Made by a program: the position numbers and the translations under genes
Part shown: positions 6,903-62,704 of the stretch, in pieces
How positions within the stretch are numbered: the stretch's first letter is position 1
How the letters are laid out: each line of letters begins with the position of its first letter
Source: an uncultured Flavobacteriales bacterium
GTDB taxonomy: Bacteria > Bacteroidota > Bacteroidia > AKYH767-A > 2013-40CM-41-45
Direction of reading: 5' to 3'
DNA length: 64,000 nt
Assembly (NCBI GenBank): GCA_964356415.1
Contig: CAYHHK010000001.1
Coordinates: 38,057-102,056 of the forward strand
The notes under the pieces: model-generated
What the model was told of the DNA's origin: nothing
Seen by the model: only the letters and a program-made list of their open reading frames with translations
The model's database searches: none

Positions 6903-7049
6903 TTTAGGTCCTCTCGTTAATACAAATCTTTTTCCCGGTGGAATAATGTAATGCAAAAAGTTTTATAATGATGAGTGATGTTTTATTCATTCGTAGTTGC
7001 CCCTATCTATGTTCATATTTACTCAATGCGCTTTCTTGATAGTGAAATA

Positions 7050-7090: not shown

Positions 7091-7096
7091 TAATGA

Positions 7097-8522: not shown

Positions 8523-9473
8523 TCATTTGTGGGTATCAGATTTTAGTAGCTTTTCAAAACTTCTTTTCATAAAAACACCAATCATTTCTTTGCGGTATGT
8601 GCGCGAATAAATATCGTTATCAATAATTCGCGGCATTTTTATCGCCCTAAGAATTAATTTATCTTTTTCTTCCAAGTTTCCTGATATTACAACAGGCTTT
8701 GGATCAACTCCACCGATTACAATATTTATTTTTCCGGATGCACTGATGGATACAGCGGTTGTTAATGAGGTGAAATCAATACTTTCTCTCAGACGCAATT
8801 TCATAAACACACATTTGTTTTCTTCGATTTGCGGGAGGAGAATACTTTTAATGATGGAGGTTGCAGAAAGATTTCTTGGCGTTAACCCGTCACCGGTATA
8901 AATATCTTCCAACTTTATTTTCTCTTCACCTTTTTCACTTTCAATGAGGAGTTCGGCATTGTAAGCAATCAGTACAGGAGCAGTGTCAGAAACAAATCTG
9001 GAAAAGCACTTTTTTTTTCCGCCCGTTGCGATGCAGATATCACCGTCACATTTCAAACAATAACCAACAGCTTGGCGCCACCATTCACTCTGATTGTAAA
9101 AACTGCACCTGTTCTCGCATAATATATTTCCACCGATGGTGGCTGTTTTTCTCAGCATTGGTGAAGCGGCAGCATGAGCCGCTTCACCTAACGAAGAAAA
9201 ATTAGCTGTGATAAATGAATTATTCTCTATCTCATTAAGTGTAACCAGGGAACCAATTCTGAAGTAATTGTCCTTTGATGTCGTGGTTTTTAATTCATTA
9301 ATTTCTGAAATATCAAGGATGCATACTGCGGTATCATTCCCTTGGAATTTATTTACCAGTATATCAGTGCCACCTGCAAGAAACCTGAAATTATTTGGGT
9401 ATTCTTTTGCAATACTAATTGCCTCAACGACTGATTTGGGCTTAAAATAAAGTGTTTCAGTTGTTACATCCAT
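8523..9473 (-). CDS. FAD-binding subunit of a xanthine-dehydrogenase-family molybdoenzyme (CoxM/XdhB/HcrB-like) with a Cys-rich insertion
   Basis: 316 aa. It has the FAD-binding FLAGGTDIL motif plus the unusual insert [44 protein letters not shown] (Cys at 119, 123, 139, 142, 147 and 156). Confidence 0.85.
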
Positions 9474-9505: not shown

Positions 9506-12298
9506 TCATTTTTCATTCCTTTCATATTGACCTTTAAGCTGTGTAAGTATATCCTCCGGCAGGATAGGCAATTTGGTAATCCGAACGCCAACGGCATCAT
9601 AAACTGCATTTGCAATTGCAGGTATTACAGGATGTAAGGCACCTTCACCGCATTCTTTTGCACCAAATGGTCCTTCGGGGTCATTTGTTTCTATAATATT
9701 GGTAACGATATCAGGTGTATCGAGTGAAGTCGGAATTTTATAGTCGAGAAAATTGTTATTTACGATGAGGCCTTTGTAATATTTCATTTGTTCACTCATT
9801 GCCTGTCCAATTCCCATGTGCCACGAACCCTCCAGTTGCCCTTCAACCGCAAGGGGATTAATTGCCTTGCCACAATCATGTGCGCCCCATACTTTAAGTA
9901 TTTTAACATGGCCGGTTTCCGTATCCACTTTCACTTCTGCTACGCAGGCACCAAAGGAGTAGGAGGGACTCAAACCTGCTCCGGCTCCTTTGAAATCACC
10001 ACCCAGTTTTGGAGAGATATATTTTCCGCTGATAGTGACTGCTCCTCGTTTTGAAGTGAGTATATCAATTGCTTCCAGCCAGCTTAAATTAAGTTTTTTA
10101 TCGTTGCTAAAAATCCTTTCATTGGCCAGATTTAATTCACTAACAGCAATGCCATTTTGCAATGAAACAGATTCAAGGATTTCTTTTCTCAGATTTTCTG
10201 CAGCATTTTTTGCAGCATTTCCTGCCATGAATGTGACCCTGCTTGAGTAGCTTCCCAAATCAACCGGAGTTAAAAGTGTATCACCGGCCAGAACAAATAT
10301 TTTATCCATGGAAAGACTCAAAACTTCTGATACAATCATTGCAAGCATTGTATCGCTTCCTTGGCCGATATCACTTGCACCGCTGGTGATCAATACCCTT
10401 CCATCAAAATCAACTTTCAAGTGAACTGTTGATTGGGGTAATTCATTCCAGATGATTGGCAATGCACTTCCGCTGATAAAAAAACCACATGCTACACCAA
10501 GACCGTGGCCATGCTCTAGTTTGCCATGACGATTTTTCCAGTCACTTTGTTCGGCAACTTTCATCAGAGATTCGCGACTGCCATTTGAAGTTATTCTGTA
10601 TTCGCCAACTGTAAGTGTGTGGGGAGTTAAAAAATTTTTGATTCTTATTTCTACCGGATCAATTTTCAGTTTATGTGCGACATCATCAATAAGACTTTCT
10701 GTCGCAAACCGGGAATTCACAGCACCATGTCCGCGCATGGCACCGCATTGCGGCTTGTTGGTATAAACACGAAAAGTTTTAAATCCGAAATTGTCCAATT
10801 TGTAAGGTGCCTGCAGCAACACTCCGTTATAATAAGAAGTAACGACACCAAAACTTCCATATGCACCTCCATCAATGGCGATGTCAGCGTCCAAAACATT
10901 AAATGTTCCGTCATTTTTTACGCCTAATTGCAACGTCATTCGTGACGGGTGACGACCGTGATTACTAATGAACACTTCTTCGCGTGTGAATCGGATCTTA
11001 ACCGGTTTTCCGGTTTTGCGGGCAAGATGGGAAATGATCATTTCATGTGGAAAAGGATCACTCTTCCCGCCGAACCCGCCACCAACATAGGGTTTGATAA
11101 CGCGCACCCTGCTCAGTGGAACTTCCATCACTTTCGCCAGGGCCCTGTGAAGGTAATGTGGAACCTGGGTAGCGGTTATGATAGTCAATCCGTTCTCATC
11201 CCAGTAGGCAGTGGCTGCATGGGGTTCAGTGAATGCATGCGTCACCCCTTCAAATTCGAATGACATTTTTGAAACAATGTCTGATTCTTCCAGCCCTTTT
11301 TGCTGATCACCAAAACGCAACTCAGCTTTCTTGTGGACGTTGTTATTGAACTTTACGTGCCCATGTATTTTTTCATGGACTCCGACATCATTAAGCGATT
11401 CATCAATGGAGAGGAATTCTTTGATTGGTTTATAGGTTACCTTAATGCATTTCAGGGCTTCTATGGCAATGTCTTCGGTATCGGCTGCAACAGCAGCAAC
11501 TACTTCACCGATGTACCGTACTTTGTCAATTGCCATTGCGGTTTCATCATTCGAAATCGGAAGTACGCCGAATTTTACGGGTAGTTCTTTCCCTGTAATT
11601 ATTGCGCGTACACCGGGTATTTTTTCAGCCTCACTTGTATTAATGCTCTCTATTTTTGCATGAGGCAGGATACTGCGGAGAAATTTTGCATGCAGTGAAT
11701 TATTAATTCTAATGTCATCAGCATACGCTGCTGAACCACTTACTTTTTTGTTGGCTTCGATATAAGGCCTCCCGACACCGACTGTTTTGAATGTTGAATT
11801 ACTGATGCTGGCGGTTTCGGTTTTTGGATTTTGTCTATCATTAGCATATTCAGAAACCGCTTCGATGATTTTTTTGTATCCTGTGCATCGGCAAACATTT
11901 CCCGATAGCGACTCCTTTATTTCATCGATTGAAGGATTCGGGTTTTTATTTACAAAGTCAAGGGCCGTAATAACCATCCCGGGTGTGCAGAAACCACATT
12001 GAACTGCACCCTTCTCCACAAACTTATCCTGAAGTTTATGCAATGTGGCATGGGTTGAAATACCTTCAATGGTGGTTATGCTTGCTCCTTCAAAGCGCAA
12101 AGCCGGTGTAATGCAGCTTAATACGGGCTTATTATTTACCAATACAGTACAGGCACCGCAACTTCCCTGTTCGCAGCCGATTTTTGTACCTGTCAAGCCA
12201 GCTTTTTCACGAATGACCGTTGAAAGCATTTCATGAGCATTAACAACAAGATCGAAATGCTTTCCATTGATAATATAAGAAACAAGCTTATTGTTCAT
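9506..12298 (-). CDS. fused [2Fe-2S] ferredoxin-type small subunit and molybdopterin-binding large subunit of a xanthine dehydrogenase/aldehyde oxidase-family molybdenum hydroxylase
   Basis: 930 aa. The N-terminus carries CEQGSCGAC...C and CGFCTPGM...CRCTGY, the two [2Fe-2S] motifs, followed by the Mo-binding aldehyde-oxidase/XDH domains. The ATG at 12298 overlaps the ferredoxin stop (ATGA). Confidence 0.9.
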   Translation of the reverse strand: MNNKLVSYIINGKHFDLVVNAHEMLSTVIREKAGLTGTKIGCEQGSCGACTVLVNNKPVLSCITPALRFEGASITTIEGISTHATLHKLQDKFVEKGAVQCGFCTPGMVITALDFVNKNPNPSIDEIKESLSGNVCRCTGYKKIIEAVSEYANDRQNPKTETASISNSTFKTVGVGRPYIEANKKVSGSAAYADDIRINNSLHAKFLRSILPHAKIESINTSEAEKIPGVRAIITGKELPVKFGVLPISNDETAMAIDKVRYIGEVVAAVAADTEDIAIEALKCIKVTYKPIKEFLSIDESLNDVGVHEKIHGHVKFNNNVHKKAELRFGDQQKGLEESDIVSKMSFEFEGVTHAFTEPHAATAYWDENGLTIITATQVPHYLHRALAKVMEVPLSRVRVIKPYVGGGFGGKSDPFPHEMIISHLARKTGKPVKIRFTREEVFISNHGRHPSRMTLQLGVKNDGTFNVLDADIAIDGGAYGSFGVVTSYYNGVLLQAPYKLDNFGFKTFRVYTNKPQCGAMRGHGAVNSRFATESLIDDVAHKLKIDPVEIRIKNFLTPHTLTVGEYRITSNGSRESLMKVAEQSDWKNRHGKLEHGHGLGVACGFFISGSALPIIWNELPQSTVHLKVDFDGRVLITSGASDIGQGSDTMLAMIVSEVLSLSMDKIFVLAGDTLLTPVDLGSYSSRVTFMAGNAAKNAAENLRKEILESVSLQNGIAVSELNLANERIFSNDKKLNLSWLEAIDILTSKRGAVTISGKYISPKLGGDFKGAGAGLSPSYSFGACVAEVKVDTETGHVKILKVWGAHDCGKAINPLAVEGQLEGSWHMGIGQAMSEQMKYYKGLIVNNNFLDYKIPTSLDTPDIVTNIIETNDPEGPFGAKECGEGALHPVIPAIANAVYDAVGVRITKLPILPEDILTQLKGQYERNEK

Positions 12299-12528
12299 CT
12301 TGAGGTTCTTTCAACTTTAATAATTTTTGCAGGACAAATTATTGCTGCTTTTAAATTCAATTTGTATTCATCTTCATCGACATCCATTCTATATACTCCC
12401 CCTTTTTCTTTGCTCCCGATTAAGTTGCATTTTCCGTCTTTTCTTGATATTCGCCACCTGCTTTTGTTTGCTTCTGCGCATGCATTGCAGCCAATACACT
12501 TGCTGCGATGAAAGTATATCCTAACCAT
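12295..12528 (-). CDS. small [4Fe-4S] (single-cluster-type) ferredoxin
   Basis: 77 aa with CIGCNAC ... CP motifs. Its start overlaps the U32 stop by 1 nt (TAATG) and its stop overlaps the downstream start (ATGA). Confidence 0.75.
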   Translation of the reverse strand: MVRIYFHRSKCIGCNACAEANKSRWRISRKDGKCNLIGSKEKGGVYRMDVDEDEYKLNLKAAIICPAKIIKVERTSR

Positions 12529-42135: not shown

Positions 42136-43587
42136 ATGCGGATTTTACTCACCGGAGCGAATGGCTATATCGGAATGCGTCTTTTACCGGTTTTGGTTGA
42201 AGCAGGACATGATGTTACCTGTATCGTAAGAGACAGTAGCCGCTTTAGGCATAATCCTGATGTGCACAGGAAAATTTCTATTATTGATTTTGATTTTTTG
42301 AGCAATGGAAAATTGAATGAATATTTTTCAGGTATGCAATTTGACGTTGCATACTACCTTATCCATTCTCTCAAGGACACTTTCGTTGCGCTTGAGGAAC
42401 ATGAAAAAAAATCTGCGTTATGTTTTGTTGAAGTAGCCCGCATCACCGGAGTAAAGCAAATCATTTACCTTGGAGGTATCAGCAATGCAAGTGCCCTTTC
42501 GACTCACCTCAATGCGCGAAAAATTGTTAAGGATATTTTACAGAACTCCGGCATTGCGTATACAATTTATGAGGCAGGAATAATCGTTGGATCAGGCAGT
42601 GCTTCGTTTGAAATCATTCGTGATCTGGTAGAAAAAATGCCGGTAATGATAGCTCCAAGATTAATCAATTCTAAATGTCAGCCGATTGCAATCCGAAACG
42701 TTATTCGGTATCTTCTTGATTCAGTCATGAATGATAGATTATTTAATAAAACTTTTGAAATAGGAGGACCTGATGTATTAACCTATAAAGAAATGATGCT
42801 GCAATTTGCAGAAGTTCGTGGTTACAGGCGCTATATTTTTACCATCCCTTTTCTTACGCCCCGGATTTCCTCCTACTGGTTATTCATTGCAACTTCAACT
42901 AATTTTACCATTGCCCGGCAGCTGATGGAGAGTTTGAAAAATGATGTCGTTTGTAAGGATAATTCTATTCGGGAAATTATATCACAGGAATTGATACCAT
43001 ACCGGGAAGCTATTCAAATGGCATTTCAGATGATAAACCAAAATATGGTTTTGTCTTCATGGAAAGATGCTTCATCCAGTACATTGCATCATCTTGAGAT
43101 AAATAATTATGTGCAGGTTCCTGTTAATGGTTGTTTCAGGGATCGTAAGTGGAAGGAGATTCCGGAAGATAGTGTTGAAGAAGTTGCAGACCGATTTTTT
43201 GGAATTGGCGGTATTCATGGATGGTATTACGCCGATATTTTATGGAGGATGCGCGGCATCATTGATAGAATGTTCGGAGGTGTAGGCTTAAGAAGAGGCA
43301 GAAGAAATGAAAACGACTTGCAGCCCGGAGATGCGCTTGATTTCTGGCGGGTAATCCTTGCTGACCGTAAGAATCGCCGCCTGCTTTTATTCGCAGAAAT
43401 GAAAATACCGGGTGAGGCCTGGTTGGAATTTTCAATTGTAAAATTTCATGACCATTATATTTTGAAGCAAACAGCAACCTTCCGGCCGCATGGTATTGCA
43501 GGTCGGAACTACTGGTATGCAATGCTGCCGTTTCATTTTTTTATCTTTAGGAATATGCTTAAGAAAATTGCAAAAAGATCAAACTAA
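42136..43587 (+). CDS. NAD(P)-binding (NmrA/SDR-type) domain protein with a C-terminal DUF2867-like domain
   Basis: It is the only confidently plus-strand gene. The N-terminus is MRILLTGANGYIGMRL, a Rossmann motif. 483 aa. Confidence 0.7.
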   Translation: MRILLTGANGYIGMRLLPVLVEAGHDVTCIVRDSSRFRHNPDVHRKISIIDFDFLSNGKLNEYFSGMQFDVAYYLIHSLKDTFVALEEHEKKSALCFVEVARITGVKQIIYLGGISNASALSTHLNARKIVKDILQNSGIAYTIYEAGIIVGSGSASFEIIRDLVEKMPVMIAPRLINSKCQPIAIRNVIRYLLDSVMNDRLFNKTFEIGGPDVLTYKEMMLQFAEVRGYRRYIFTIPFLTPRISSYWLFIATSTNFTIARQLMESLKNDVVCKDNSIREIISQELIPYREAIQMAFQMINQNMVLSSWKDASSSTLHHLEINNYVQVPVNGCFRDRKWKEIPEDSVEEVADRFFGIGGIHGWYYADILWRMRGIIDRMFGGVGLRRGRRNENDLQPGDALDFWRVILADRKNRRLLLFAEMKIPGEAWLEFSIVKFHDHYILKQTATFRPHGIAGRNYWYAMLPFHFFIFRNMLKKIAKRSN

Positions 43588-44321
43588 ATTCCGGCTCCGA
43601 TACTTTTCCCGCCGTCAACATAAATTGTCTGCCCTGTAATAAACTGATTTTGCACCGAGACAAGAAAGGAAACCAGGTTTGCAATATCTTCAGGCTTACC
43701 CATTGTTTTGGTCGGTTGTGCCTCTATCAGTTTACCAAGAACAGCAGGATTCAATTTTTGTGTCAGGGGTGTATCAATCAATCCCGGTGCAATTGCATTG
43801 ACCAGCACATTGTGTCTTCCGAGTTCCAAAGCAAGTACTCTTGTAAGGGCAACAATCCCGGCTTTTGATGCTGAGTAGTTTGATTGGCCGGCATTTCCCA
43901 GCCATGCACGTGAAGAAATATTTACGATTCGCCCGCTCTTTTGTTCTTTCATGATCCGTGAGGCTTCACGGCACATCAACCAAGTTCCTTTCAGGTTTAC
44001 GTTCAGTACCGAATCAAAATCTTCCATGCTCATGTTCCAGATCATTTTATCTCTGATAATTCCCGCATTGTTAATGAGTACGTCAAGTCTTTTATACTCT
44101 ATCATTATTTTTTCAAAGAGAGATTTCACAATTAGTTCTTTGGTGATATCGGCTTTTGCAAAACTGAGTTTGCTTTTACCGAATTTTGTAAGCAATTTTT
44201 TTCCGTTTGCGGCATCCATATCTACAGCAATTACAAAGTAATCTTCGTCAATCAGTTTTTTCGTAATTGCCTTGCCAATTCCATTGGCCGCTCCGGTGAC
44301 GATGGCTATTTTAGGCTCCAT
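43584..44321 (-). CDS. SDR family oxidoreductase (FabG-like 3-oxoacyl reductase family)
   Basis: TGAANGIGKA cofactor motif, NNAG and catalytic YxxxK (YSASKAG). Confidence 0.85.
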   Translation of the reverse strand: MEPKIAIVTGAANGIGKAITKKLIDEDYFVIAVDMDAANGKKLLTKFGKSKLSFAKADITKELIVKSLFEKIMIEYKRLDVLINNAGIIRDKMIWNMSMEDFDSVLNVNLKGTWLMCREASRIMKEQKSGRIVNISSRAWLGNAGQSNYSASKAGIVALTRVLALELGRHNVLVNAIAPGLIDTPLTQKLNPAVLGKLIEAQPTKTMGKPEDIANLVSFLVSVQNQFITGQTIYVDGGKSIGAGI

Positions 44322-45162
44322 GTAATAGTGGTAGAGTTAAGCATGTTTCCATTTTTATATCCGCTTCATGTGTGTGATTGCTATCTGATCCTGCTTGACC
44401 CGGGTATTTGTCATTTGAACGCGCGACAATTTTCGCAACAATGCCCAAAGCAATTTCGGCCGGTGAATGCTGCCCGATGTCATATCCCATTGGCATGTCA
44501 ACTTCATTTAGTTGGCCCTGCGTTGTGATATTTTGTTGAAGAAATAATTTTCGTGTGACTAAAACTTTTCTCAAGCTTCCAATCATTCCAAGATATGCAT
44601 GCGGCTGATTTATGCTCAGGGCGAGGATTTCCCTGTCGTAGTCATGGGAATGGGTACAGATAACAATGTATGTATTGCTATCAAATGTAATTTTTGAAAA
44701 TGCCTGTTGATGGGGCAGATTGAATTTTGTCACCTCAGAGAGCTGGATTTTCCTGATATATTCCTTCCTTTCATCAACAATAACTATTTCGAAGTCTAAT
44801 TTATCTGCGAAATAGGAAATGTTGCTTCCTATGTGTCCTGCACCGAAAATAATTAGCTGCTTCCTCGGCTTCATGGGTTCAATAAATATTTTCATGCTTC
44901 CGCCGCAACACATCTTCTCTTTAAGAAGTGCATATTCTTCTAGCTTTGGACGGCCCGATTGATATGTTGCAATTGCAATTTCAATCACTTTCTTTTCGAT
45001 ATTTCCTCCTCCGATGGTTCCTGCGCATCTGCCATTTTCCCAAACAAGCATTTTGGCACCTGCCTTCAAAGGTGTGCTGCCACTGGTTTCAACAACTGTG
45101 CAGAGGGTTATGTGCTCTCTTTGTGCCGATGCATTATTGAGTATTTCAGTGAATCGGATCAT
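44311..45162 (-). CDS. xdhC: XdhC/CoxI family molybdoenzyme maturation factor
   Basis: 283 aa with an XdhC N-terminal domain and a Rossmann-like C-terminal domain (LIIFGAGHIG). Confidence 0.8.
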   Translation of the reverse strand: MIRFTEILNNASAQREHITLCTVVETSGSTPLKAGAKMLVWENGRCAGTIGGGNIEKKVIEIAIATYQSGRPKLEEYALLKEKMCCGGSMKIFIEPMKPRKQLIIFGAGHIGSNISYFADKLDFEIVIVDERKEYIRKIQLSEVTKFNLPHQQAFSKITFDSNTYIVICTHSHDYDREILALSINQPHAYLGMIGSLRKVLVTRKLFLQQNITTQGQLNEVDMPMGYDIGQHSPAEIALGIVAKIVARSNDKYPGQAGSDSNHTHEADIKMETCLTLPLLHGA

Positions 45163-45769
45163 GGGTAAAATATTTCCTGTATTCCTCTTTTGTATTGATG
45201 TTTGCGTGTATGTTGCTGTCGTTTGTTTTCAACTGCTCAAAAGGATATTTCTCTAGGATAGCCCTTAGATTGGTTTCCGGCTGTGTTGCTTTTTTGATGT
45301 CCTGTAAAATTTCAGCTGACACCAATACAGGGTGCCCATGTTTGTTATTGTTTTCCGGAACTACATATTTCCCTACCAAAAGTCTCTTCATCATTTGTTC
45401 AAGGAGTGCAGTGGTTGTAAAAGGATTGTCAATGTTCTGAATAAAGGCACTGTTTTTTGTATTGATTGCATTTACTCCAAGTTTTACACTAAAAAATCTG
45501 CCGTCTTCAGGATGTTCATTGATTATAGTGGTAATATTCGTTTTATTCTTAAGCGGTTTGATCAATTCTTTTGCCTTCTTCGCGGTTTCAGTATTTAAGA
45601 CGATCACAATGTCCGGAATATTTGCATCAATATAAACCATTGTCAGTCTTTCAAGAAACGAAATGGATGAATTAAATTTCAGGAAACATTTTGGACTACC
45701 GAAGCGTTCCGATTTGCCTGCTGAGAGTATGATTGCAGAAACAAAGCCGCTGCCGGGTTGTTTATTCAT
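45146..45769 (-). CDS. mocA: MobA-like NTP transferase, MocA-type molybdenum cofactor cytidylyltransferase candidate
   Basis: AIILSAGKSERFGSPK nucleotidyltransferase motif. Adjacency to xdhC suggests MCD-cofactor synthesis for the XDH-family enzyme. Confidence 0.65.
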   Translation of the reverse strand: MNKQPGSGFVSAIILSAGKSERFGSPKCFLKFNSSISFLERLTMVYIDANIPDIVIVLNTETAKKAKELIKPLKNKTNITTIINEHPEDGRFFSVKLGVNAINTKNSAFIQNIDNPFTTTALLEQMMKRLLVGKYVVPENNNKHGHPVLVSAEILQDIKKATQPETNLRAILEKYPFEQLKTNDSNIHANINTKEEYRKYFTHDPIH

Positions 45770-47772
45770 GTTCCTTTATATTCAACATTTCTGCCAAGAG
45801 AACTAAGCCCAATCAAGGCATCTTTGGAAATAAAGATGTTTTTTAAATCATCCAATTCTGAAATATTAAGATCACAACCATTAATCAGTTTTTCAGAAAC
45901 ATATAGGGCAAGAGGAGCATTCCCTTTGACCTTATTGATAATTCTTTCTGCATCTTCTTTGTCGAGATGATCAAGGCTGTATTCCAGGTGGAGCAGGTGG
46001 TCAAGTGAATTGGCCTCGAAAAATGTTTTTATAGCAAGACATCGCTCTTCAATATTCTTAACGCCCAACGGTATGGAATCAATGGCCATCTCTCCCGATA
46101 AAATTTTAGGAATATCTTCTTTCTGAATGATGCTGTCGATAAGACCGATTTCAGAAGCATGGGTTGCAGTTACTTTTTTTCCTGTATATATCAGATACTT
46201 CGCGAGCCCTTTGCCGACTCTTCTTGCTGTGCGTTTGGCACCACCCAGTCCTGGATAGATTCCGATGCCTGTTTCCGGAAATGCCAGTTTGGCGCCCTGA
46301 ACGGAGAGTATGAGATCGGCACACAATGCAAGTTCTAATCCACCGCCAAGCGCCATTCCATTTAATATTACCACAACTTTCTTTTTTGATTTGTCAATTT
46401 TTTCAAAAAGTTGCTGCCCGAAACTTGTGAAGTCAACAATTCTGTCAACTGAATGATTCTTTATGTTGTTTACGAAGAAATTGATATCTGCTCCTGCTAC
46501 AAAAGCTTTTCCTGTACCTGTGATAAAAATGGTTTTGACGGAGGAATAATTTTCTGCCTGCGAGAATTTCTCATTCAATTGATTTATTACTTCTTCATTC
46601 AAGGCATTCAGTTCTTCAGGTCGGTTTATTGTTATGATGGCTATGTCATCTTTATTTTCCAGAAGGACATAATCCATATGCCAGGAAGAAGAGGATACGA
46701 TGGGGATAGCTTCATTGTAGTGTCTTGCATAATTATTCACCAGACGCTTTACTTCTTCTTCTCCGGTTCTTTTCATTAAATCTACGGGACCATATTTCCA
46801 ACGAAGGCCGATTTTGGCACCCTTGTTTAAATCTACTGCAGAGCATACTCCGTCGTTAAGAATCTGAGTGCAGATAAAAAATACACAACCAAGCAGCCGT
46901 TCATTGATTACTTTGTTTGAGACTGGATTCAGTTCTGCTGAATTTAGCTCCGCAATTTTCCAGTTTTCTTTTTTTGCTGCAAGCTGTTCGAGCATGGGTG
47001 CAATTTTGTAGGATGGTCCAAAAAACTCAAGTGTTCGCTGGGCATGCATTGCAATGGAAACTCCGGTAGCATTCATCAATGCGAAAGGCCCCATTCCGAT
47101 TTTGAAAATTTTCATGCAGGCAGAATCAATACTTTCAATTGTTCCAATGTTTTCAGACAATAGCTTTACGGATTCATTCAGCCATGGAACAAAAAAACGA
47201 TTCACCGCAAATCCATAAACGTCTTTGCAGATAATTGCATCCTTACCCGATAGCATACAGAATGTTTTTGCATTCTCTATTGTTGTTGCTGAAGTTTGGG
47301 TTCCGGGAATAATTTCAACGAGGCGGTTTTTTGCTGCGTGATAAAAATAATGCAGGCCGATAAACCGTTCAGGATGTTTCACTGTGGCAGAAAGTTCAGA
47401 TACCGAAAACGAAGAAGTGTTTGTTGCAATGATCGTTTCTTCAGGTACAATTTCTGAAAGCGCTTTAAACAGATCGCTTTTTGCCTTGAAATCTTCGAAT
47501 ATAGCTTCAATGATAATATTGCAGATTTTTAATTCCTGCAGGTCAGCTGTTCCTTTAAGATTGGATAAGGAGTTAATAACTTCCTCCTCTTTAAAAATAT
47601 TTTTTGCCACCCCTTCGTTCAGCATCGTTTTGATACCGCCCAGGCCTTTCTCTACAAACTTCATTTCCTTGTCGGCAAGAATAACTGTAAAGCCTTCCTG
47701 AACAAATTTTTGAGCCAGGGCAGAGCCCATTGTTCCTGCCCCAATTACGCCGACAGTTTTGATATTTTTCAT
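45766..47772 (-). CDS. bifunctional 3-hydroxyacyl-CoA dehydrogenase (N-terminal) / enoyl-CoA hydratase (C-terminal)
   Basis: 668 aa. The N-terminus carries VGVIGAGTMGSALAQ (HADH NAD site) and the C-terminus has a crotonase fold. Its stop overlaps the mocA start (ATGA). Confidence 0.85.
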   Translation of the reverse strand: MKNIKTVGVIGAGTMGSALAQKFVQEGFTVILADKEMKFVEKGLGGIKTMLNEGVAKNIFKEEEVINSLSNLKGTADLQELKICNIIIEAIFEDFKAKSDLFKALSEIVPEETIIATNTSSFSVSELSATVKHPERFIGLHYFYHAAKNRLVEIIPGTQTSATTIENAKTFCMLSGKDAIICKDVYGFAVNRFFVPWLNESVKLLSENIGTIESIDSACMKIFKIGMGPFALMNATGVSIAMHAQRTLEFFGPSYKIAPMLEQLAAKKENWKIAELNSAELNPVSNKVINERLLGCVFFICTQILNDGVCSAVDLNKGAKIGLRWKYGPVDLMKRTGEEEVKRLVNNYARHYNEAIPIVSSSSWHMDYVLLENKDDIAIITINRPEELNALNEEVINQLNEKFSQAENYSSVKTIFITGTGKAFVAGADINFFVNNIKNHSVDRIVDFTSFGQQLFEKIDKSKKKVVVILNGMALGGGLELALCADLILSVQGAKLAFPETGIGIYPGLGGAKRTARRVGKGLAKYLIYTGKKVTATHASEIGLIDSIIQKEDIPKILSGEMAIDSIPLGVKNIEERCLAIKTFFEANSLDHLLHLEYSLDHLDKEDAERIINKVKGNAPLALYVSEKLINGCDLNISELDDLKNIFISKDALIGLSSLGRNVEYKGT

Positions 47773-48557
47773 TTTGAAAGTGCTTTATTATTTTCCCAGA
47801 CGGGTTTTCTTTTCTCTAAAAATGAATTGATGCCTTCATTCGCGTCATGGGTTTCCATCAGTTGCCTTACATACATGCTTTCAAGTTGCTGAAGAAAATT
47901 GGTTAAGACATGATTGAATTTAGCCCGTGATGCTCTTACTGCAAAGCGGAGTGAGGTGGCGCTTTTTGGAATAATTTGATCTGCAATCCATTTTTCAATA
48001 CCTGTATCCATTGTGGCCTTGTCATCAAACAGTTCATTCACCAATCCTATTTGTCTGGCTTCTTCTGCATGAAAGGTCCTTCCGGTAAGAAGTATTTCTT
48101 CTGCCCTTGCCAAGCCGATTTTTTCAGGAAGGATAACTGAAGCAGGAGGGGGGAAGACCCCAAGTACAATTTCGGGCTGCCCGAATCTGGCTGTTTTGTC
48201 GGCAAAAATAAAATTGCACATAATCGCAAGTTCCATTCCGCCACCAAGACATTGTCCTGAAACTTTTGCCAGAGTTGGGATGGACAGATCTCTTAGCGTA
48301 TAAAACAATGCATGAAAATTCTGAAGCATGGTTGAAGCAAATTCTTTTTTATGTTCTTCTACACTTGCCCCAAAGGAAAAATGCTTCCCTGCGCCTTCAA
48401 GAATAATCAGCTTAACCTGGGAATTAGCACGAAATGTATTTAATACAGACTGCAATTCTTCAATCATCACGTGGTCAAGTACATTTCCTTTGCCGTCATC
48501 AAGAATCACATTGATAACAGTATCATTATGGCTGTAAATAATTTTAACTTTTTCCAT
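47769..48557 (-). CDS. enoyl-CoA hydratase/isomerase (crotonase) family; dienoyl-CoA hydratase (Dch)-like candidate
   Basis: 262 aa with crotonase oxyanion-hole segments (LEGAGKHFSFGAS; CLGGGMELA). Function inferred from size and context with had/oah-like genes. Confidence 0.8.
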   Translation of the reverse strand: MEKVKIIYSHNDTVINVILDDGKGNVLDHVMIEELQSVLNTFRANSQVKLIILEGAGKHFSFGASVEEHKKEFASTMLQNFHALFYTLRDLSIPTLAKVSGQCLGGGMELAIMCNFIFADKTARFGQPEIVLGVFPPPASVILPEKIGLARAEEILLTGRTFHAEEARQIGLVNELFDDKATMDTGIEKWIADQIIPKSATSLRFAVRASRAKFNHVLTNFLQQLESMYVRQLMETHDANEGINSFLEKRKPVWENNKALSK

Positions 48558-48559
48558 TG

Positions 48560-49660
48560 TCAGGTATTAACTTTTTGGTATTGTGGCGAGATCGTTCTGT
48601 GCATTTCATCATTCCATTCATTTCCCTGCGCCAGGAGTTGACGCAGTTTGATGAAATCTACTTCACGGTCCTCTTTTGGTCCGTCATTAAAGGCTTTGAA
48701 TCCAGCCTTCGCTTCTGTCATCATATTTAGTGCAAGCCACTCGCGGCTGCCTTCCTTGTTTTTATCCCAGTGTTCGAGTTTGAATTTGCGAACTTCACTG
48801 ATGGTTTTTGTCATGCAGTTGGGGAATGTGTAAAGTAGTTTGGTGATCAGGTTATTTACCGCCTTGTCCAGCATCGATAAATCTGTTTCGGCAGTTGCTA
48901 AAATCTCTTTTGCTTTTTTCAATTCATCGCCTGATTTGGAAGTTCCGAAAATGACACGTCCGAATTCATTAGTGATTTTATCTGTTACCACCATTGGATT
49001 TGGAGTAAACTGACCATTCACTTTTAGCACAGGAACTATTTCTGTAATAACCCCAAAATAATATGCCTGATGTGCGGTCCACGGTTCACAAAGCGTGAGA
49101 GACATCATTGCCCGCTCAACGCCTACAAAAAGCGGAAGGAAATCAGTGGCGCCTCCAATGGGTGCACTCCCGTGTTTTGGACCTGCCTGGCCGAATCTTG
49201 CCATGTCACTGGCTATGCTGAAGTCGCAGGCCATTCCTATTTCCTGGCCACCGCCAATACGCATTCCGTTAACACGATTGATTACAGGTTTTTCGCATTT
49301 CAATATTGCACTTACCATGTCATTGAACAACCGCATATATTGTGAGTACTCCTGCGGGTTTCCGGCATAATACTCGGCATACTCTTTTGTGTTTCCGCCT
49401 GTACAAAATGCTTTGTCACCAACTGCAGTAAAAACAACTGCAACTACACTCCTGTCGTTTGATGCTTCTCCAAATGCCAGAATGATTTCTTTTACTGCCG
49501 AAGTCGTGTATGAATTATATTGTTTTGGATTATTAAGATAAATCCAGGCATTGTATAACCCATCTATGGGATTGCCATTTTTGTCAAGGCAGTTCTTTTT
49601 CTCAAAAATGATTTCTTTATATACTGCTGTGACGATGTTGTGATTTTTTAGGTTGCTCAT
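48560..49660 (-). CDS. crotonase-superfamily protein with a C-terminal extension; 6-oxocyclohex-1-ene-1-carbonyl-CoA hydrolase (Oah/BamA)-like candidate
   Basis: ~366 aa from the ATG at 49660 (MSNLKNH...). Crotonase core (AFCTGGNTKEY; GMRIGGGQEIGMACDF) plus a ~100 aa C-terminal extension. The longer track ORF would overlap the upstream T9SS gene. Confidence 0.7.
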   Translation of the reverse strand: MSNLKNHNIVTAVYKEIIFEKKNCLDKNGNPIDGLYNAWIYLNNPKQYNSYTTSAVKEIILAFGEASNDRSVVAVVFTAVGDKAFCTGGNTKEYAEYYAGNPQEYSQYMRLFNDMVSAILKCEKPVINRVNGMRIGGGQEIGMACDFSIASDMARFGQAGPKHGSAPIGGATDFLPLFVGVERAMMSLTLCEPWTAHQAYYFGVITEIVPVLKVNGQFTPNPMVVTDKITNEFGRVIFGTSKSGDELKKAKEILATAETDLSMLDKAVNNLITKLLYTFPNCMTKTISEVRKFKLEHWDKNKEGSREWLALNMMTEAKAGFKAFNDGPKEDREVDFIKLRQLLAQGNEWNDEMHRTISPQYQKVNT

Positions 49661-49664
49661 TGTT

Positions 49665-50852
49665 CTAGTTTGTAATTTGTAATTTAAATAAATATTGTTT
49701 TTGGCCTCTCGTTGCTGAAAGTAAATACAACCCCGGTGATAATTCAGAAACATCAATTTGCTTGGAATTCTTTGCTGTCACAACAGGGATTCCTCCAAAT
49801 GAATAAATTTTAATATCTGAGATGCAGTTGTCGGGAGAGTTGATAAATACACAGTTTGTGGATGGGTTCGGATAAATACTTAATTGTTCATTCTGATTTT
49901 CATTTATTGCATCAAGTATGCACCAGGTGATTCCGGAAGATATTGTTCCAAAATTGAAGTCAATGAATGGTGTGGATATTGGCGGGGTTGAGTCGCAAAA
50001 ATCAAAATCTCCCTTCATCCAGCCCCAATTGACCGAGCTGTCGGACACTTGAAAGCTTCCTGTTGCTGTTCCTTTAACGGTATCTGCATTATACCAGCTG
50101 TCGTTCACAATTATTCTTCCGTTGTTATCAAGCGTTGCATTGTGTTGAACTGAATCAGCATTCAGCAGGCTTTTATATAGGATGAAATACCCTGAAGAAA
50201 GGTTCTTAAATATTTCAGTATTCCAGGAACTGTGCAAACAAGTAATGCTATCTGAATTGGTAAAGGTTCCAAGATTTGTAAGATCGGTAAATGTGAGGGT
50301 ATTATTATTTGTGTATTCCCCGGTATTTGTAAATTGATTGTATGTGCAAATCCCATTATTTGTAAAAGTTCCGCCGGTAGTGATACTGTCAATATCCAGG
50401 AAACTGCCGTCGTTGATTATAGCGCCTGTGCTGTATAGACTGTCAATGTTTTGAATGGTTCCTGTATTGGTGAAGTTCACATAGCTCATCAGCGAACGGG
50501 CTGTAAGTGTCCCACTATTCGAAAATGAGCCTGCCTGTACAAACAAGTAGCGTATATCAAGTGTACCATGATTTGTCAGTGTTCCTCCATTTACCAGTAT
50601 GTCCCGTGAAGAATTGTTTTCTATTAGTGATCCTCCTGCATTAATGGTGATTCCTCCGGAAGGGAGATACCAGCCGGTGTCAAGTGCGACAGCGTGGTTG
50701 ATGGTAACTGTAAAGCCGGGCAATGGTATGCAGGTACAACTCCATGTCAACGGGTTCATCCAATTTCCATTTTGAACAGAAGTTGCATTCTGCGAAACAC
50801 CGGAAAAACAAATGGAGAATAAAGCCAGAAGGGTGCTAAGAAATTTGCGCAT
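49665..50852 (-). CDS. secreted beta-helix-like repeat protein with a T9SS C-terminal sorting domain, embedded in the catabolic operon
   Basis: Signal peptide MRKFLSTLLALFSICFSGVSQ, many FTNxGT-type repeats, and C-terminal SIYPNPSTNCVFIN...GLYLLS...LFKLQI. Confidence 0.75.
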   Translation of the reverse strand: MRKFLSTLLALFSICFSGVSQNATSVQNGNWMNPLTWSCTCIPLPGFTVTINHAVALDTGWYLPSGGITINAGGSLIENNSSRDILVNGGTLTNHGTLDIRYLFVQAGSFSNSGTLTARSLMSYVNFTNTGTIQNIDSLYSTGAIINDGSFLDIDSITTGGTFTNNGICTYNQFTNTGEYTNNNTLTFTDLTNLGTFTNSDSITCLHSSWNTEIFKNLSSGYFILYKSLLNADSVQHNATLDNNGRIIVNDSWYNADTVKGTATGSFQVSDSSVNWGWMKGDFDFCDSTPPISTPFIDFNFGTISSGITWCILDAINENQNEQLSIYPNPSTNCVFINSPDNCISDIKIYSFGGIPVVTAKNSKQIDVSELSPGLYLLSATRGQKQYLFKLQITN

Positions 50853-50858
50853 GAAGGT

Positions 50859-51968
50859 TTATTTGAAATCGGGAATAAGAACTGATCGTTTTGAATATTT
50901 ATGCTCAAGAGTATTTCTAAATACTTCATTTATTTTCGACATAGGAAAAGTTTGCACAAACTGTGATATGTTCAGTTTGCCATTGGATATCAGGTCTAAA
51001 ACCTCGGGATATAGTTCTGCCCTGCATCCCCATGTGCCGATGAGTTTGGCGTCATATGCCATCAGGTTGCTTAGCCGGACTTCTGTTTTATCCATTGTGA
51101 AGCCAACAATTGAAAGCGTTGAAGCGTACGTGATAAGGTTAAAAGCCAGATCCTGACCTGCTTTTGTTCCGCTGAATTCAAATATTTTCCATCTGAATTT
51201 TGGCGCATTGATTTCCTTAGCAAGCGCTTTTACTTTTTCTTTGATTGTTTTCTGATCAAGGCTTTTGATATTCAAAACCGCATCTATGCCATTTTCTTTT
51301 GCAGTGGTCAGCTTCGCATCATTGATATCCAGCGCAATTACTTTAGCTCCGAATATTTTTGCGATCAGTGCTCCATAAACTCCTACGCCTCCAACACCGA
51401 TAACAATGGCAAGATCACCCGGTTCCAGTTCTGATTTTTTAATGACCTGATAAGGTGTTGAAATTGCATCAGCAATAACCGCGAGATGTTCGAGTGGATA
51501 TTTATTCAAAACACTTTTTGGAACTTCACATAGAAATTTAGAGGGTACTATTATATGTGAGGAAAATCCTCCCTGGAAATCGTTTCCGGGCATTAATTGA
51601 TTTCTGCAAATATTGCTTCTCCCATTTTTACAGAACTCGCAATCACCACAAGGCAACACGGCAGGAATGATTACTGCTTTATCAAGCCATTTATTATCAC
51701 CGGTAATTACTGTCCCGCTGATCTCATGACCTAACGTCAGAGGAAGTGCATGCTTCGTCTGTACTCCTGCATGCCAAAAGCTGATGTCTGTATGACACAC
51801 ACCGCATCCTGCAATTTTCACAATGACCTCTCCGTCTTTTAATACCGGTAGTGGGTTTTCAATAAGTTGAAATTCCTTGTTGAGTTCAACCATTTGCCAT
51901 TGATGCATTTTTTCGGTTGAAGTAACTTTTGCAGAAGCAAGCTTGATTTTATCAAATGTTTCAGGCAT
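50859..51968 (-). CDS. zinc-dependent medium-chain alcohol dehydrogenase family; 6-hydroxycyclohex-1-ene-1-carbonyl-CoA dehydrogenase (Had/BamQ)-like candidate
   Basis: 369 aa with a catalytic Zn motif (GCGVCHTD), a structural Zn Cys4 (CGDCEFCKNGRSNIC) and a GxGxxG Rossmann motif (IGVGGVGVYG). Confidence 0.8.
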   Translation of the reverse strand: MPETFDKIKLASAKVTSTEKMHQWQMVELNKEFQLIENPLPVLKDGEVIVKIAGCGVCHTDISFWHAGVQTKHALPLTLGHEISGTVITGDNKWLDKAVIIPAVLPCGDCEFCKNGRSNICRNQLMPGNDFQGGFSSHIIVPSKFLCEVPKSVLNKYPLEHLAVIADAISTPYQVIKKSELEPGDLAIVIGVGGVGVYGALIAKIFGAKVIALDINDAKLTTAKENGIDAVLNIKSLDQKTIKEKVKALAKEINAPKFRWKIFEFSGTKAGQDLAFNLITYASTLSIVGFTMDKTEVRLSNLMAYDAKLIGTWGCRAELYPEVLDLISNGKLNISQFVQTFPMSKINEVFRNTLEHKYSKRSVLIPDFK

Positions 51969-51970
51969 AA

Positions 51971-53233
51971 CTATAGGTTTTTGTTTTCAAAAAGGATAGC
52001 TGTTCCCTGTCCGCCGCCAATGCATGCAGATGCGATCCCATATTTTACTTTTCTGCGTATCATTTCTTTAGAGATGGTGAGAGACAACCGCAATCCTGTG
52101 GCGGCAAGCGGATGCCCTATTGCAATGGCTCCTCCGTTTACATTCAGTTTGGTTCTGTCAATTCCCAGTTCCTTTTCGCAACCGATTACCTGCGCCGAGA
52201 ATGCTTCGTTAATTTCAAGCAGACCAATATCGGAGATATTCAATCCAGTCATTTCAAGCAAAAGTCTGATTGCCGGAACCGGGCCCAATCCCATGTATTT
52301 CGGATCGATGCCACAACTTGCGCCTCCGATTATTTTTGATATTGGTTTTAAATTCTTTTGTGAAACAGTTTGCAAATTTGCAATAACTGCAGCGGCTGCG
52401 CCATCAACAATTCCACTGCAATTTCCTGCCGTAAGAACTCCCACTTTGTCAAACACTGTAGGCAGTTTACCCAGCGCATCCAGCGTTGTGGCACGGATAT
52501 GTTCATCAATTGAAAAGGAGCTTGTTCCTTTTGGGAGAAAAGCTTTTCTTGATTTAAGGCCTTCAATATTAAACGTGGCGGACTGCAACGATGCGATTTC
52601 CTCAGAGAAGATTTTATTTGTTGTGGCATCAATTGCTCTTTGAAAAGAGGTCATTGCATATTCATCGCAGTCATTTCTTGAGATATCATATTTCTTTGCA
52701 ACATTTTCGGCTGTATATCCCATCGGATATCCGGCGGCAGTATCGTCCAGAGCTTCCCAAAGCATATCCTTAAATACAGGCCTGCCTAAGGGATATCCCA
52801 TTCTGTTTCCAAAACTCACAGTAGGGGAGAGTGACATATTTTCTGTGCCAACACAGAGAACTGTGTCTGCTTTTCCCAGAGTGATTTGTTCTGCACCTGT
52901 AATAATTGTTTCAAAGCCTGATCCGCAAATCCTTTGCACCATTAATGCCGGAACTTCAGCCGGGATTCCGCTAAAGAGAGATATGTGGCGTGGAAGAAAA
53001 TAGGAGTCTGTTGAACTTTGTCCGATATTGGCTGCAATCACCTGATCAATTTCATTAGGTTTCACTCCTGATTTTTGCAGCGTGGATATTGCGGCAAAAA
53101 TCCCTAAATCGGTAGGAGAGATTTGGGAAAGCGAACCACAGTATTTTCCAAAAGGTGTCCTTGTTCCGTCGACGAGATAAATGTCGTCGAATATTATTCC
53201 TATTCCTTTATTTATATGATGGTAGGCTTTCAC
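51971..53233 (-). CDS. acetyl-CoA C-acyltransferase (degradative thiolase)
   Basis: RTPFGKY, catalytic Cys (VQRICGSGFE), NVNGGAIAIGHPLAATG and C-terminal CIGGGQG. Apparent GTG start at 53233 overlaps the upstream stop (GTGA). Confidence 0.85.
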   Translation of the reverse strand: MKAYHHINKGIGIIFDDIYLVDGTRTPFGKYCGSLSQISPTDLGIFAAISTLQKSGVKPNEIDQVIAANIGQSSTDSYFLPRHISLFSGIPAEVPALMVQRICGSGFETIITGAEQITLGKADTVLCVGTENMSLSPTVSFGNRMGYPLGRPVFKDMLWEALDDTAAGYPMGYTAENVAKKYDISRNDCDEYAMTSFQRAIDATTNKIFSEEIASLQSATFNIEGLKSRKAFLPKGTSSFSIDEHIRATTLDALGKLPTVFDKVGVLTAGNCSGIVDGAAAAVIANLQTVSQKNLKPISKIIGGASCGIDPKYMGLGPVPAIRLLLEMTGLNISDIGLLEINEAFSAQVIGCEKELGIDRTKLNVNGGAIAIGHPLAATGLRLSLTISKEMIRRKVKYGIASACIGGGQGTAILFENKNL

Positions 53234-56399: not shown

Positions 56400-56400
56400 A

Positions 56401-58160: not shown

Positions 58161-59021
58161 TTAAACAGCCAGTGCCTGTTTTTCCAATAACTTTTTATGG
58201 CGATAGCCTCCCCACAAGGCTGCTCCAAGGGCGCCGGCATAAATGGCATCGGGATGCGTTTTTATTTCAAATTTTTTTCCTGTTTCTATTAATTGCTCTT
58301 CAATTGCCTGAATCATTCCTGTGTTTAGTGCCATGCCACCTGTAAGAAAAATAGGGGATGCTGCCTTTAATGAACTCATAAGTTTGATAATTCGGGAGGC
58401 GATGGAAAGATGAATTCCTTTGATGATGTCCGGTGTAGAAATCCCCCTTGATACCATGTTGATTACATCCGTTTCTGCCAATACAGCACATATCCCTGAG
58501 GAAATTTCGGGTTGGTTTGCCTTCATTGACACCTCTCCCACTTCCTCAATGGACAATCCTAAATAGCGCGAAATATTTTCAAGAAACTGGCCTGAACCGG
58601 AAGCGCATTGTCCTGTCATTTTGTAATCTTCCACACGCGCATTCTCACTGATGCGGATTGCCCGCACGTATAAAGCACCAAGATCAACAACGGTTCTTGC
58701 TTCAGGAAAAAAATAATTGGCTCCTCTCGCATGGGTAGTCATTCCATAAAAGTGGCCCCGCTTTTTTTTAACTAAATCGCCTTCTCCTGTGGAGGCAAGG
58801 TATGCAATGTCTTCATATTGAAGATTGTGTTTTGTAAGCATTGCCTGCACCATCTCATCAGCGACTTGTGTAGGGTTGCGTTTCCTTATTTTTTCTGTGT
58901 GCTTGTCATTGATGATGGGATGGTCAGAATAGTCCATTAGTACTAACTTTATGAAGTTGCTTCCGACGTCTATTCCCATTGTGAAATAGGATTTTGACAT
59001 ATTTGAATTATTTTTTATCAT
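58161..59021 (-). CDS. BadF/BadG/BcrA/BcrD-family ATPase, short form (BcrD/BadG-like subunit)
   Basis: 286 aa with the MGIDVGSNFIKLVL ATPase phosphate-1 motif and CASGSGQFLE. It is the last gene of the four-gene reductase cluster. Confidence 0.8.
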   Translation of the reverse strand: MIKNNSNMSKSYFTMGIDVGSNFIKLVLMDYSDHPIINDKHTEKIRKRNPTQVADEMVQAMLTKHNLQYEDIAYLASTGEGDLVKKKRGHFYGMTTHARGANYFFPEARTVVDLGALYVRAIRISENARVEDYKMTGQCASGSGQFLENISRYLGLSIEEVGEVSMKANQPEISSGICAVLAETDVINMVSRGISTPDIIKGIHLSIASRIIKLMSSLKAASPIFLTGGMALNTGMIQAIEEQLIETGKKFEIKTHPDAIYAGALGAALWGGYRHKKLLEKQALAV

Positions 59022-59106
59022 TATTGTTCGCTTATCTTCTGTTAGAAAATCATTAGGTGGCTTTTTTGGGAAAGTACAATATTGTGATTAAATTAATATA
59101 TGATAT

Positions 59107-59910
59107 TTATGATGATTGCTGTGTGCTGAAGACGAACTTCTTATTTTTAATTTTATTTTCTTTTGTTTCAATTTTCTCAAGTGGGGCATTTATAATGGAG
59201 TAAACACGGTTTTTTAATTCGTCAACACGGTCTTTGGTATAACCCTTTGTATCAATGGGTGCATGGATAATAATCTCTGACATTCCGGGGCCTGATTTCC
59301 CGGTTAATATTCCTTTGCGCTGAATTCTTTTCCAATTGGTTAAAAAAGTAATTGGTAAAATGGGAACTTGCTTCTGAATTGCCAGAGCAAATGCACCGGC
59401 TTTGAATTCACCCATGAGAGGAGCATTTTTCGATACTGTTCCCTCAGGAAAAATTGCCAAAGGATTTCCATTGGCTAATTCTCTTGACATTCTTTTTAGT
59501 GCTTTTATTGATCCACTGGCGTTTTGCCTGTCAACAAGTATATTCATACCTGAGGTGTAAAATATTTTAAACAGTGGCCATTTTTCAATTTCTTTCTTTC
59601 CGGTAAAAACAAAATACCTGTTAAAAGTAGTGTATAGGCAGGGAATGTCAATGAAAGAGGAATGGTTGGGACAAATAATATATCCTCCCTTTTTTGGTAT
59701 GTTATTTCGGCCTTTTACGTATGGAATAATGCCTCCGAGCAGTAAAAGAATCCATCCGAATATGCGCATTAATTTAAATGCATAAGGGTAGCGATCAGGA
59801 CTGTGCAGGAAGTACGAGAATGCAGGATATAAGATAATTAAAGTTACGGTGAACAGTAAAAAATAGTAAATCCTGTATGCTACTTTGAAGGGAAGCAGAA
59901 TGTACCCCAT
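59107..59910 (-). CDS. lysophospholipid (PlsC-type) acyl-CoA-dependent acyltransferase family membrane protein
   Basis: 267 aa with two N-terminal TM helices, an HxxxxD motif (NHSSFID) and FPEGT. Its start lies 3 nt after the stop of the BcrA-like gene. Confidence 0.75.
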   Translation of the reverse strand: MGYILLPFKVAYRIYYFLLFTVTLIILYPAFSYFLHSPDRYPYAFKLMRIFGWILLLLGGIIPYVKGRNNIPKKGGYIICPNHSSFIDIPCLYTTFNRYFVFTGKKEIEKWPLFKIFYTSGMNILVDRQNASGSIKALKRMSRELANGNPLAIFPEGTVSKNAPLMGEFKAGAFALAIQKQVPILPITFLTNWKRIQRKGILTGKSGPGMSEIIIHAPIDTKGYTKDRVDELKNRVYSIINAPLEKIETKENKIKNKKFVFSTQQSS

Positions 59911-59913
59911 TGG

Positions 59914-61323: not shown

Positions 61324-61347
61324 TTATTGTTTCCTTTTTAAAAGTGT

Positions 61348-62649: not shown

Positions 62650-62704
62650 TTTGTAGTTTTTTCTGTGACTTAATATTTGTGAGATATCATCTTGATATTA
62701 TTAT

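Follow-up and report, generated by a model that had tools for sequence, protein, structure and literature searches.

A 4-hydroxybenzoyl-CoA reductase-like enzyme of uncultured Bacteroidota with fused iron-sulfur and molybdenum subunits and a separate FAD subunit

A 64,000-nucleotide (nt) stretch of DNA from an uncultured Flavobacteriales bacterium (GenBank assembly GCA_964356415.1, contig CAYHHK010000001.1, positions 38,057 to 102,056), here called the window, carries a gene at 9506..12298 that joins the [2Fe-2S] small subunit (S, or γ) and the molybdenum large subunit (L, or α) of a xanthine oxidase (XO) family enzyme in one chain. The FAD-binding medium subunit (M, or β) has its own gene at 8523..9473. 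All window features named below lie on the minus strand. The locus raises the question of whether this S::L fusion is real, how unusual it is next to a separate FAD subunit, and which enzyme it belongs to. We found that the fusion is genuine and conserved, that the layout is a recurrent minority form, and that the enzyme is most probably the functional counterpart of 4-hydroxybenzoyl-CoA reductase (4-HBCR) in these Bacteroidota.

The fused gene is one uninterrupted frame of 930 codons plus a stop, with an HcrC-like [2Fe-2S] domain, a linker, and an HcrA-like part that binds the molybdenum cofactor (Moco). Pfam places Fer2 at residues 10 to 62 of the 930-amino-acid (aa) protein, Fer2_2 at 76 to 148, the a/b-hammerhead domain Ald_Xan_dh_C at 187 to 291, MoCoBD_1 at 318 to 556, and MoCoBD_2 at 581 to 862. 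All five domains score well above their gathering thresholds. Residues 1 to 152 (11843..12298) form two [2Fe-2S] modules, Fer2 and Fer2_2. In a PDB search, residues 7 to 152 aligned with residues 6 to 151 of the 161-residue HcrC of Thauera aromatica 4-HBCR (1rm6_C). The cluster ligands are Cys42/47/50/62 and Cys101/104/136/138, and these eight cysteines are invariant in an alignment of orthologues (81 of 81 sequences). Residues 171 to 930 (9509..11788) contain the hammerhead and the two Moco-binding domains. Near the C terminus, the PFGAKE..EG motif is conserved, reading PFGAKECGEG in the fused protein and PFGAKEASEG in HcrA; the Glu of the GAKE..E motif has a catalytic role. The two [2Fe-2S] motifs, the hammerhead with the two Moco domains, and the FAD module are features of the XO family.

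The two halves are connected by a hydrophilic linker of 18 residues (153 to 170; 11789..11842). Its bounds are given by the PDB search, in which the HcrC-like match stops at residue 152 and the HcrA-like match begins at residue 171. The linker stands in place of the final 10 residues of HcrC and the initial 8 residues of HcrA. Therefore, this is a plain end-to-end fusion. Across the 81 aligned orthologues, the stretch from 150 to 178 has a hypervariable sequence and a length of anywhere from 21 to 35 residues. Such a variable but in-frame stretch is as would be expected for a maintained flexible linker.

A fusion of this kind could be an artefact in which a frameshift, a missed stop codon, or a misassembly joined two genes. 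Since the S and L genes abut in the nearest unfused relatives, an error in a single base might, in principle, look like a fusion. We found no evidence in support of such an error. An independent metagenome contig from ENA (ERZ4201063, 51 kb) encodes the identical 930-aa protein among the same neighbouring genes, and no frameshift or stop separates the [2Fe-2S] and Mo domains. A search covering 5.8 billion proteins gave matches to the fused protein, at 74 to 86% identity, in more than 120 clusters of the 90%-identity level; all were 909 to 974 aa long with the same domain set, and those with names were mostly from metagenome-assembled genomes of Bacteroidota. One source labels a close homologue "aldehyde oxidase". 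We also scanned genomes, one per species, and obtained 306 matching stretches, of which the best 80 were used for all locus counts below. These 80 loci are all from uncultured Bacteroidota of lakes, groundwater, and similar habitats, and all 80 have the fused form. The linker, moreover, changes in length and sequence and yet keeps the frame. We therefore reject a frameshift or misassembly origin, whose probability we regard as negligible, and take the fusion to be a genuine and conserved feature. The 930-aa S::L fusion proposed in the preliminary description is thus borne out by the intact reading frame, the Pfam domains, the independent assembly, and all 80 loci.

The same description had proposed a separate HcrB-like FAD subunit, and this also holds. 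The FAD gene (8523..9473, 316 aa) begins 32 nt downstream of the fused gene as the next open reading frame (ORF), and an FAD gene lies directly downstream of the fusion in 76 of the 80 related loci. The product matches FAD_binding_5 in Pfam with 125 bits, and its best matches are to HcrB in both NCBIfam (TIGR03195) and the PDB (1rm6_B). It has an extra Cys-rich loop of about 40 residues with four cysteines, which is a hallmark of HcrB. Cys123/139/147/156 fit the [4Fe-4S] loop in a residue-for-residue alignment to 1rm6_B and are invariant in 76 of 76 orthologues; from this correspondence, binding of a [4Fe-4S] cluster is predicted. In T. aromatica 4-HBCR, the equivalent loop of the β subunit binds a [4Fe-4S] cluster, as stated in the part of PMC11760930 that cites Unciuleac et al. 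(2004). No second gene for a small, large, or FAD subunit was found within the 64-kb window.

To determine how common this layout is, we used the Mo part alone as query against 1.84 billion 50%-identity cluster representatives, which kept the ranking free of bias towards fusions, and examined the best 150. These were 133 stand-alone large subunits (700 to 830 aa), 8 fragments, 7 S::L fusions, and 2 L::M fusions. The seven S::L fusions (P0121, P0124, P0129, P0130, P0142, P0157, and P0226; 62 to 35% identity) have intact Cys motifs. A separate FAD gene adjoins the fusion in all six of the S::L representatives whose contigs were examined, upstream in one and downstream in five (two of them cut by the contig end), and the HcrB Cys loop is present in four of these six FAD subunits. 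In the two L::M fusions (P0145 and P0265; 1117 and 1140 aa), the Mo subunit precedes an FAD_binding_5 domain whose Cys-rich loop is HcrB-like, so that this clade has subunit fusions in both directions. The S::L layout with a separate FAD gene is a recurrent minority form, at about 5%, and is uncommon but not unprecedented.

Unfused three-gene systems from metagenomes (P0122, P0123, and P0125) have Mo subunits that are 47 to 55% identical to that of the window protein, closer than Thauera HcrA, and the gene order is again S-L-M. Unlike the window protein, they have a separate small subunit of 163 to 175 aa, whose gene immediately precedes the L gene and abuts or overlaps it. The FAD gene follows L directly or one gene on. 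The P0123 neighbourhood also contains BcrAD, HGD-D, and AMP-ligase genes. Because these closest unfused relatives have exactly the S-L-M order, the most likely origin of the fusion is that neighbouring hcrC-like and hcrA-like genes lost the stop or overlap at their junction. In a rough neighbor-joining tree, drawn without support values, the window protein groups with the fused P0121 and then with the unfused P0122 and P0123. The other fusions are scattered among unfused S-L-M relatives, and Thauera HcrA falls inside the same larger clade. This interleaving points to several independent fusions as the probable history.

These results bear on two further claims of the preliminary description. 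Its view that the hybrid architecture is unusual stands insofar as the form is in the minority (7 of 150, against 133 stand-alone subunits). However, the architecture has precedents in XdhD-YgfM of Escherichia coli and in six other fused representatives with an FAD gene; it is thus recurrent, with one characterised example, but not common in a well-characterised family. The suggestion that the layout defines a distinct subfamily is not supported, given that fused and unfused forms are interleaved in the rough tree.

Among characterised enzymes, the window protein is closest to 4-HBCR. The best PDB match of residues 171 to 921 is HcrA (1rm6_A; E value of 7e-178). The Mo part alone scores 597 bits against HcrA, and no other solved chain reaches an E value of 1e-80 or lower. 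In NCBIfam, the best match of the fused protein is the HcrA model TIGR03194 (827.7 bits, residues 178 to 919), and the Hcr models (TIGR03194 and TIGR03195) score best for both the α and β parts. For the γ part, glyceraldDH_gamma (171.2) and XdhC_XDHase (170.6) score slightly above the HcrC model TIGR03193 (166.7).

The genes around the fusion in related genomes point in the same direction. Their canonical order is bcrCBA on one strand, followed by mocA, xdhC, a short-chain dehydrogenase (SDR) gene, the fusion, and the FAD gene on the other. We found bcr or dch/had/oah genes within 10 kb of the fusion in 34 of the 46 loci that have at least 9 kb of upstream flank. The SDR gene (cluster c2) is immediately upstream of the fused gene in 55 of the 80 loci, at a median offset of -34 nt. 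An XdhC-like gene (cluster c4; 37 loci) is directly upstream of the fused gene in most genomes (median offset, -766 nt), and a MocA-like gene (cluster c3; 38 loci) is just upstream of the XdhC-like gene. Genes for XdhC-like and MobA-like proteins also stand beside the 4-HBCR genes of Geobacter metallireducens (PMC2700814).

We therefore propose that the window encodes a two-polypeptide 4-HBCR-type enzyme, with γ and α fused and β separate, that probably removes the para-hydroxyl of 4-hydroxybenzoyl-CoA, or of a close aryl-CoA analogue, and feeds the BcrCBAD benzoyl-CoA reductase. By analogy with Thauera 4-HBCR, the putative flow of electrons would be in the reductive direction. Reduced ferredoxin, as the candidate donor, would give low-potential electrons to the [4Fe-4S] cluster and FAD of β, and the electrons would then reach the Mo cofactor by way of the two [2Fe-2S] clusters in the fused N-terminal domain. 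This cofactor is probably the molybdopterin cytosine dinucleotide (MCD) form, because a MocA-like gene is linked. The Mo site would strip the para-hydroxyl from the predicted substrate, and the resulting benzoyl-CoA would pass to the window's ATP-dependent BcrCBAD for dearomatisation.

Several observations weigh against this proposal. The identity to T. aromatica HcrA, the only characterised enzyme of this kind to compare with, is only 42% (745 aligned residues, 12 gap positions), and the three parts miss the NCBIfam equivalog cutoffs for HcrA (827.7 against 994.55), HcrB (200.1 against 404.55), and HcrC (166.7 against 257.8). With scores below these cutoffs, orthology and substrate identity are not established, and we therefore call the enzyme 4-HBCR-like. 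The FAD subunit also matches the oxidative enzymes of the PaoB type (5g5g_B), so the Cys loop alone is no proof of the reductive direction. In the window, about 31 kb separates the gene pair from the pathway genes, and the pair is next to unrelated-looking U32, TrpB-like, and hydantoinase-like genes. NCBIfam revealed no recognisable 4-hydroxybenzoate-CoA ligase; the AMP-binding protein at 56401-58149 fits only generic acyl-CoA ligase models. Finally, an AlphaFold2 model of the fused chain (mean predicted local distance difference test score of 66; root mean square deviation to the aldehyde oxidoreductase MOP of 25 Å) is too poor to define the geometry of the fusion; the best Foldseek match of this low-confidence model is 1rm6_A.

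The missed cutoffs and the low identity would also fit a 4-HBCR-like enzyme with another substrate, one that dehydroxylates a different hydroxylated aryl or heteroaryl compound or CoA ester, or is an oxidative hydroxylase, and that is no orthologue of HcrCAB. Precedents exist, since XO-family dehydroxylases act on uric acid (XdhD-YgfM; PMC12507026) and on urolithin C (UcdCFO; PMC11760930). The tightly linked SDR gene fits this view as well. To our knowledge, the Thauera hcr operon has no SDR counterpart. However, no other characterised relative is nearly as close as HcrA, which lies in the same larger clade of the rough tree, and the genes in synteny are specifically those for benzoyl-CoA reductase and dch/had/oah, as a benzoyl-CoA-producing enzyme predicts. 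We consider a different substrate rather unlikely. A generic MOP-like aldehyde oxidoreductase or xanthine dehydrogenase is very improbable. It would account for the MOP-like S::L layout, for the MOP (NF045668) and XdhA model scores of 500 and 568 bits, and for the names "aldehyde oxidase" and "molybdopterin-dependent oxidoreductase" given to such proteins in databases. Yet these scores are far below their cutoffs (1100 and 780, respectively) and below the HcrA score, the FAD gene adjoins the fusion in nearly all loci, unlike MOP, and the context is the benzoyl-CoA pathway, with no purine-catabolism genes nearby. A 4-HBCR-type dehydroxylase thus remains our preferred assignment.

The window itself contains a complete Thauera-type anaerobic benzoyl-CoA pathway at 43587-63868, with bcrCBAD, dch, had, oah, HADH/ECH, thiolase, and acyl-CoA ligase genes. 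A class I benzoyl-CoA reductase (bcrC, bcrB, bcrA, an acyltransferase gene, and bcrD) is encoded at 58161..63868. Its NCBIfam scores are 455.8 for BcrC (cutoff, 421), 692 for BcrB (cutoff, 487), 317 for BcrD (cutoff, 313), and 439 for BcrA, which is below the cutoff of 578. The lower pathway at 45766..53233 consists of a HADH/ECH fusion, a Dch-like protein, Oah, Had, and a thiolase, identified with NCBIfam and by tblastn to the locus clusters. Oah scores 588 bits (cutoff, 464), Had 453 (cutoff, 339), and Dch 228, below its cutoff of 292; the thiolase was also matched. An ORF with a Por_Secre_tail domain, a secretion C-terminal sorting domain in Pfam, lies inside this block (49665-50852) and is not a pathway enzyme.

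Next to these genes are an SDR gene (43587..44321; adh_short), a gene for an XdhC/CoxI-type Moco-insertion chaperone (44311..45162; XdhC_CoxI and XdhC_C), and one for a MocA/MobA-like nucleotidyltransferase (45146..45769; NTP_transf_3), probably for molybdopterin cytosine dinucleotide synthesis. The XdhC-like gene is about 32 kb from the fused gene. Evidently, a rearrangement separated the reductase genes from their usual place. The window has a second MobA-like gene at 16988-17584, within a general Moco cluster. Possibly, this one serves synthesis of molybdopterin guanine dinucleotide for NarG, and the one beside the xdhC-like gene serves MCD synthesis for the XO-family enzyme.

Three genes at 53230-58149 encode a ketopantoate-reductase-like::BcrAD-type ATPase fusion (633 aa), an HGD-D dehydratase-like subunit (440 aa), and the 582-aa AMP-binding ligase. 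They look like a second radical module of the 2-hydroxyacyl-CoA dehydratase-like kind, and we speculate that this module could connect aryl-2-oxo or 2-hydroxy acids with aryl-CoA intermediates. Genes for the respiratory nitrate reductase subunits NarG (1205 aa) and NarH (516 aa), two major facilitator superfamily transporters, and two c-type cytochromes lie at 25451-41934, on the DNA that separates the reductase genes from the benzoyl-CoA island. This set suggests nitrate-linked aromatic degradation.

The immediate neighbours of the window gene pair are not conserved, being common to only 2 to 8 of the 80 loci. On the upstream side, the region at 12295-13769 encodes a 77-aa ferredoxin with a single cluster and a U32-family protein that resembles TrhP/UbiU but scores below the cutoffs. 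The two genes are translationally coupled through a TAATG overlap. The ferredoxin ORF (12295..12528; Fer4_15 and Fer4_13) in turn overlaps the start of the fusion gene with its stop (ATGA). We considered this ferredoxin as a dedicated electron donor and downgraded it. It follows U32 in all seven loci that have it, and in two of them (L001 and L002) the pair stands away from the fusion gene. The ferredoxin thus travels with U32 and not with the reductase; it is therefore a weak donor candidate and looks like the partner of U32. Beyond this pair, there is a full set of Moco-biosynthesis genes.

Downstream of the FAD gene, the region at 299-8464 encodes a TrpB-like enzyme dependent on pyridoxal phosphate (NF009057, above cutoff), caprolactamase/hydantoinase-like A and B proteins, an acyl-CoA dehydrogenase, and a thiolase-like protein. 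We rejected these downstream genes as a conserved context of the fusion, as they occur in only two or three of the 80 loci; the hydantoinase/acyl-CoA dehydrogenase block was found in only two related loci (L003 and L017). In other genomes, the position directly after the FAD gene is often taken by a gene for a hemerythrin-like protein of 180 aa (21 loci) or for a pyruvate:ferredoxin-oxidoreductase-like (PFOR-like) protein of about 1175 aa (14 loci); L004, L006, L009, L017, and L026 are examples of such loci. Both are absent from this position in the window. These neighbours may have to do with oxygen sensing or protection and with ferredoxin reduction.

Taken more widely, the fused (γ-α)+β enzyme could mark a large unrecognised guild of uncultured freshwater and groundwater Bacteroidota that have the complete Thauera-type ATP-dependent benzoyl-CoA pathway and degrade phenolic, lignin-derived compounds anaerobically, with the fusion as the lineage's signature 4-HBCR. 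We put this forward tentatively, as a possibility that we hold to be somewhat doubtful; it draws on the 80 species-level genomes fetched out of 306 matched and on the window pathway beside the NarGH nitrate reductase. In such a guild, the fusion may alter the quaternary assembly or the electron-input partner, given the hemerythrin-like and PFOR-like neighbours. A genome survey of the benzoyl-CoA pathway makes no mention of Bacteroidota (PMC10803450). The pathway context outweighs the fusion in importance: if it is true, a full class I benzoyl-CoA pathway with a 4-HBCR-like enzyme in many uncultured Bacteroidota would add a phylum seldom associated with anaerobic aromatic degradation to those capable of it. 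For enzymology, the smaller point is that a 4-HBCR-type enzyme can have γ and α in one end-to-end chain, and that such joining has probably happened repeatedly. Anyone wishing to express an oxygen-sensitive reductive dehydroxylase in a heterologous host may find the two-gene version convenient. For annotation, the warning is that a "Fer2 + Mo" fusion is not automatically an FAD-less MOP-type enzyme, and that the neighbouring FAD gene and its Cys loop should be checked.

Compared with known systems, the enzyme is most like HcrCAB of T. aromatica (PDB 1RM6/1SB3), the closest solved relative for each part, with a colinear Mo part. Both have the same two [2Fe-2S] motifs, the same four-Cys loop in β, the S-L-M gene order, and a tie to class I benzoyl-CoA reductase and dch/had/oah genes. 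However, γ and α are one chain in the window protein and separate chains in 1RM6, so that the three separate polypeptides of the (αβγ)2 enzyme are here reduced to two. The host is an uncultured member of the Bacteroidota and not, as for Thauera, a betaproteobacterium, and an SDR gene is tightly linked in most of the Bacteroidota genomes. The differences from 4-HBCR are thus the number of polypeptides, a position outside the curated equivalog thresholds, and the host phylum. In a limited search of the literature, we found no description of a fused 4-HBCR or of one from Bacteroidota.

MOP of Desulfovibrio gigas (PDB 1VLB/1SIJ) is likewise a single-chain S::L fusion, of about 907 aa, and is the best full-length match among solved structures. 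MOP-type enzymes have no FAD subunit. Because an FAD subunit is present, the window enzyme is not of the MOP type, and its Foldseek sequence identity to MOP is 28%.

The closest precedent for the layout is XdhD-YgfM of E. coli K-12, in which xdhD is annotated as a fused Mo/Fe-S subunit and the FAD gene, ygfM, adjoins it. NCBIfam holds a paired model set for this layout (TIGR03313/TIGR03312), and mocA and an XdhC-family gene are nearby in E. coli. XdhD and YgfM copurify and reduce uric acid to 2,8-dioxopurine with NADH (PMC12507026). However, XdhD is only 29% identical to the window protein and differs in its purine substrate and NADH donor. YgfM lacks the [4Fe-4S] loop, and ygfM is immediately upstream of xdhD. 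In an alignment with the window protein, XdhD has none of the eight [2Fe-2S] cysteines, and the N-terminal "Fe-S" domain of E. coli xdhD (locus L081, 9317-12187) gives only a weak Fer2_2 match in Pfam. As an exact precedent, XdhD is thus valid only in part, its S-like domain being without the cluster cysteines. The window proteins also fall short of the XdhD and YgfM family cutoffs (411.2 against 1101.9 for TIGR03313, and 54.5 against 241.5 for TIGR03312). The window enzyme shares the layout of XdhD-YgfM, not its family, and XdhD-YgfM, although no exact equivalent, is a characterised example of both the domain layout and reductive dehydroxylation. The fusion itself is a simple rearrangement that recurs and has a characterised architectural precedent, and the window enzyme is a known one with a modest change of architecture.

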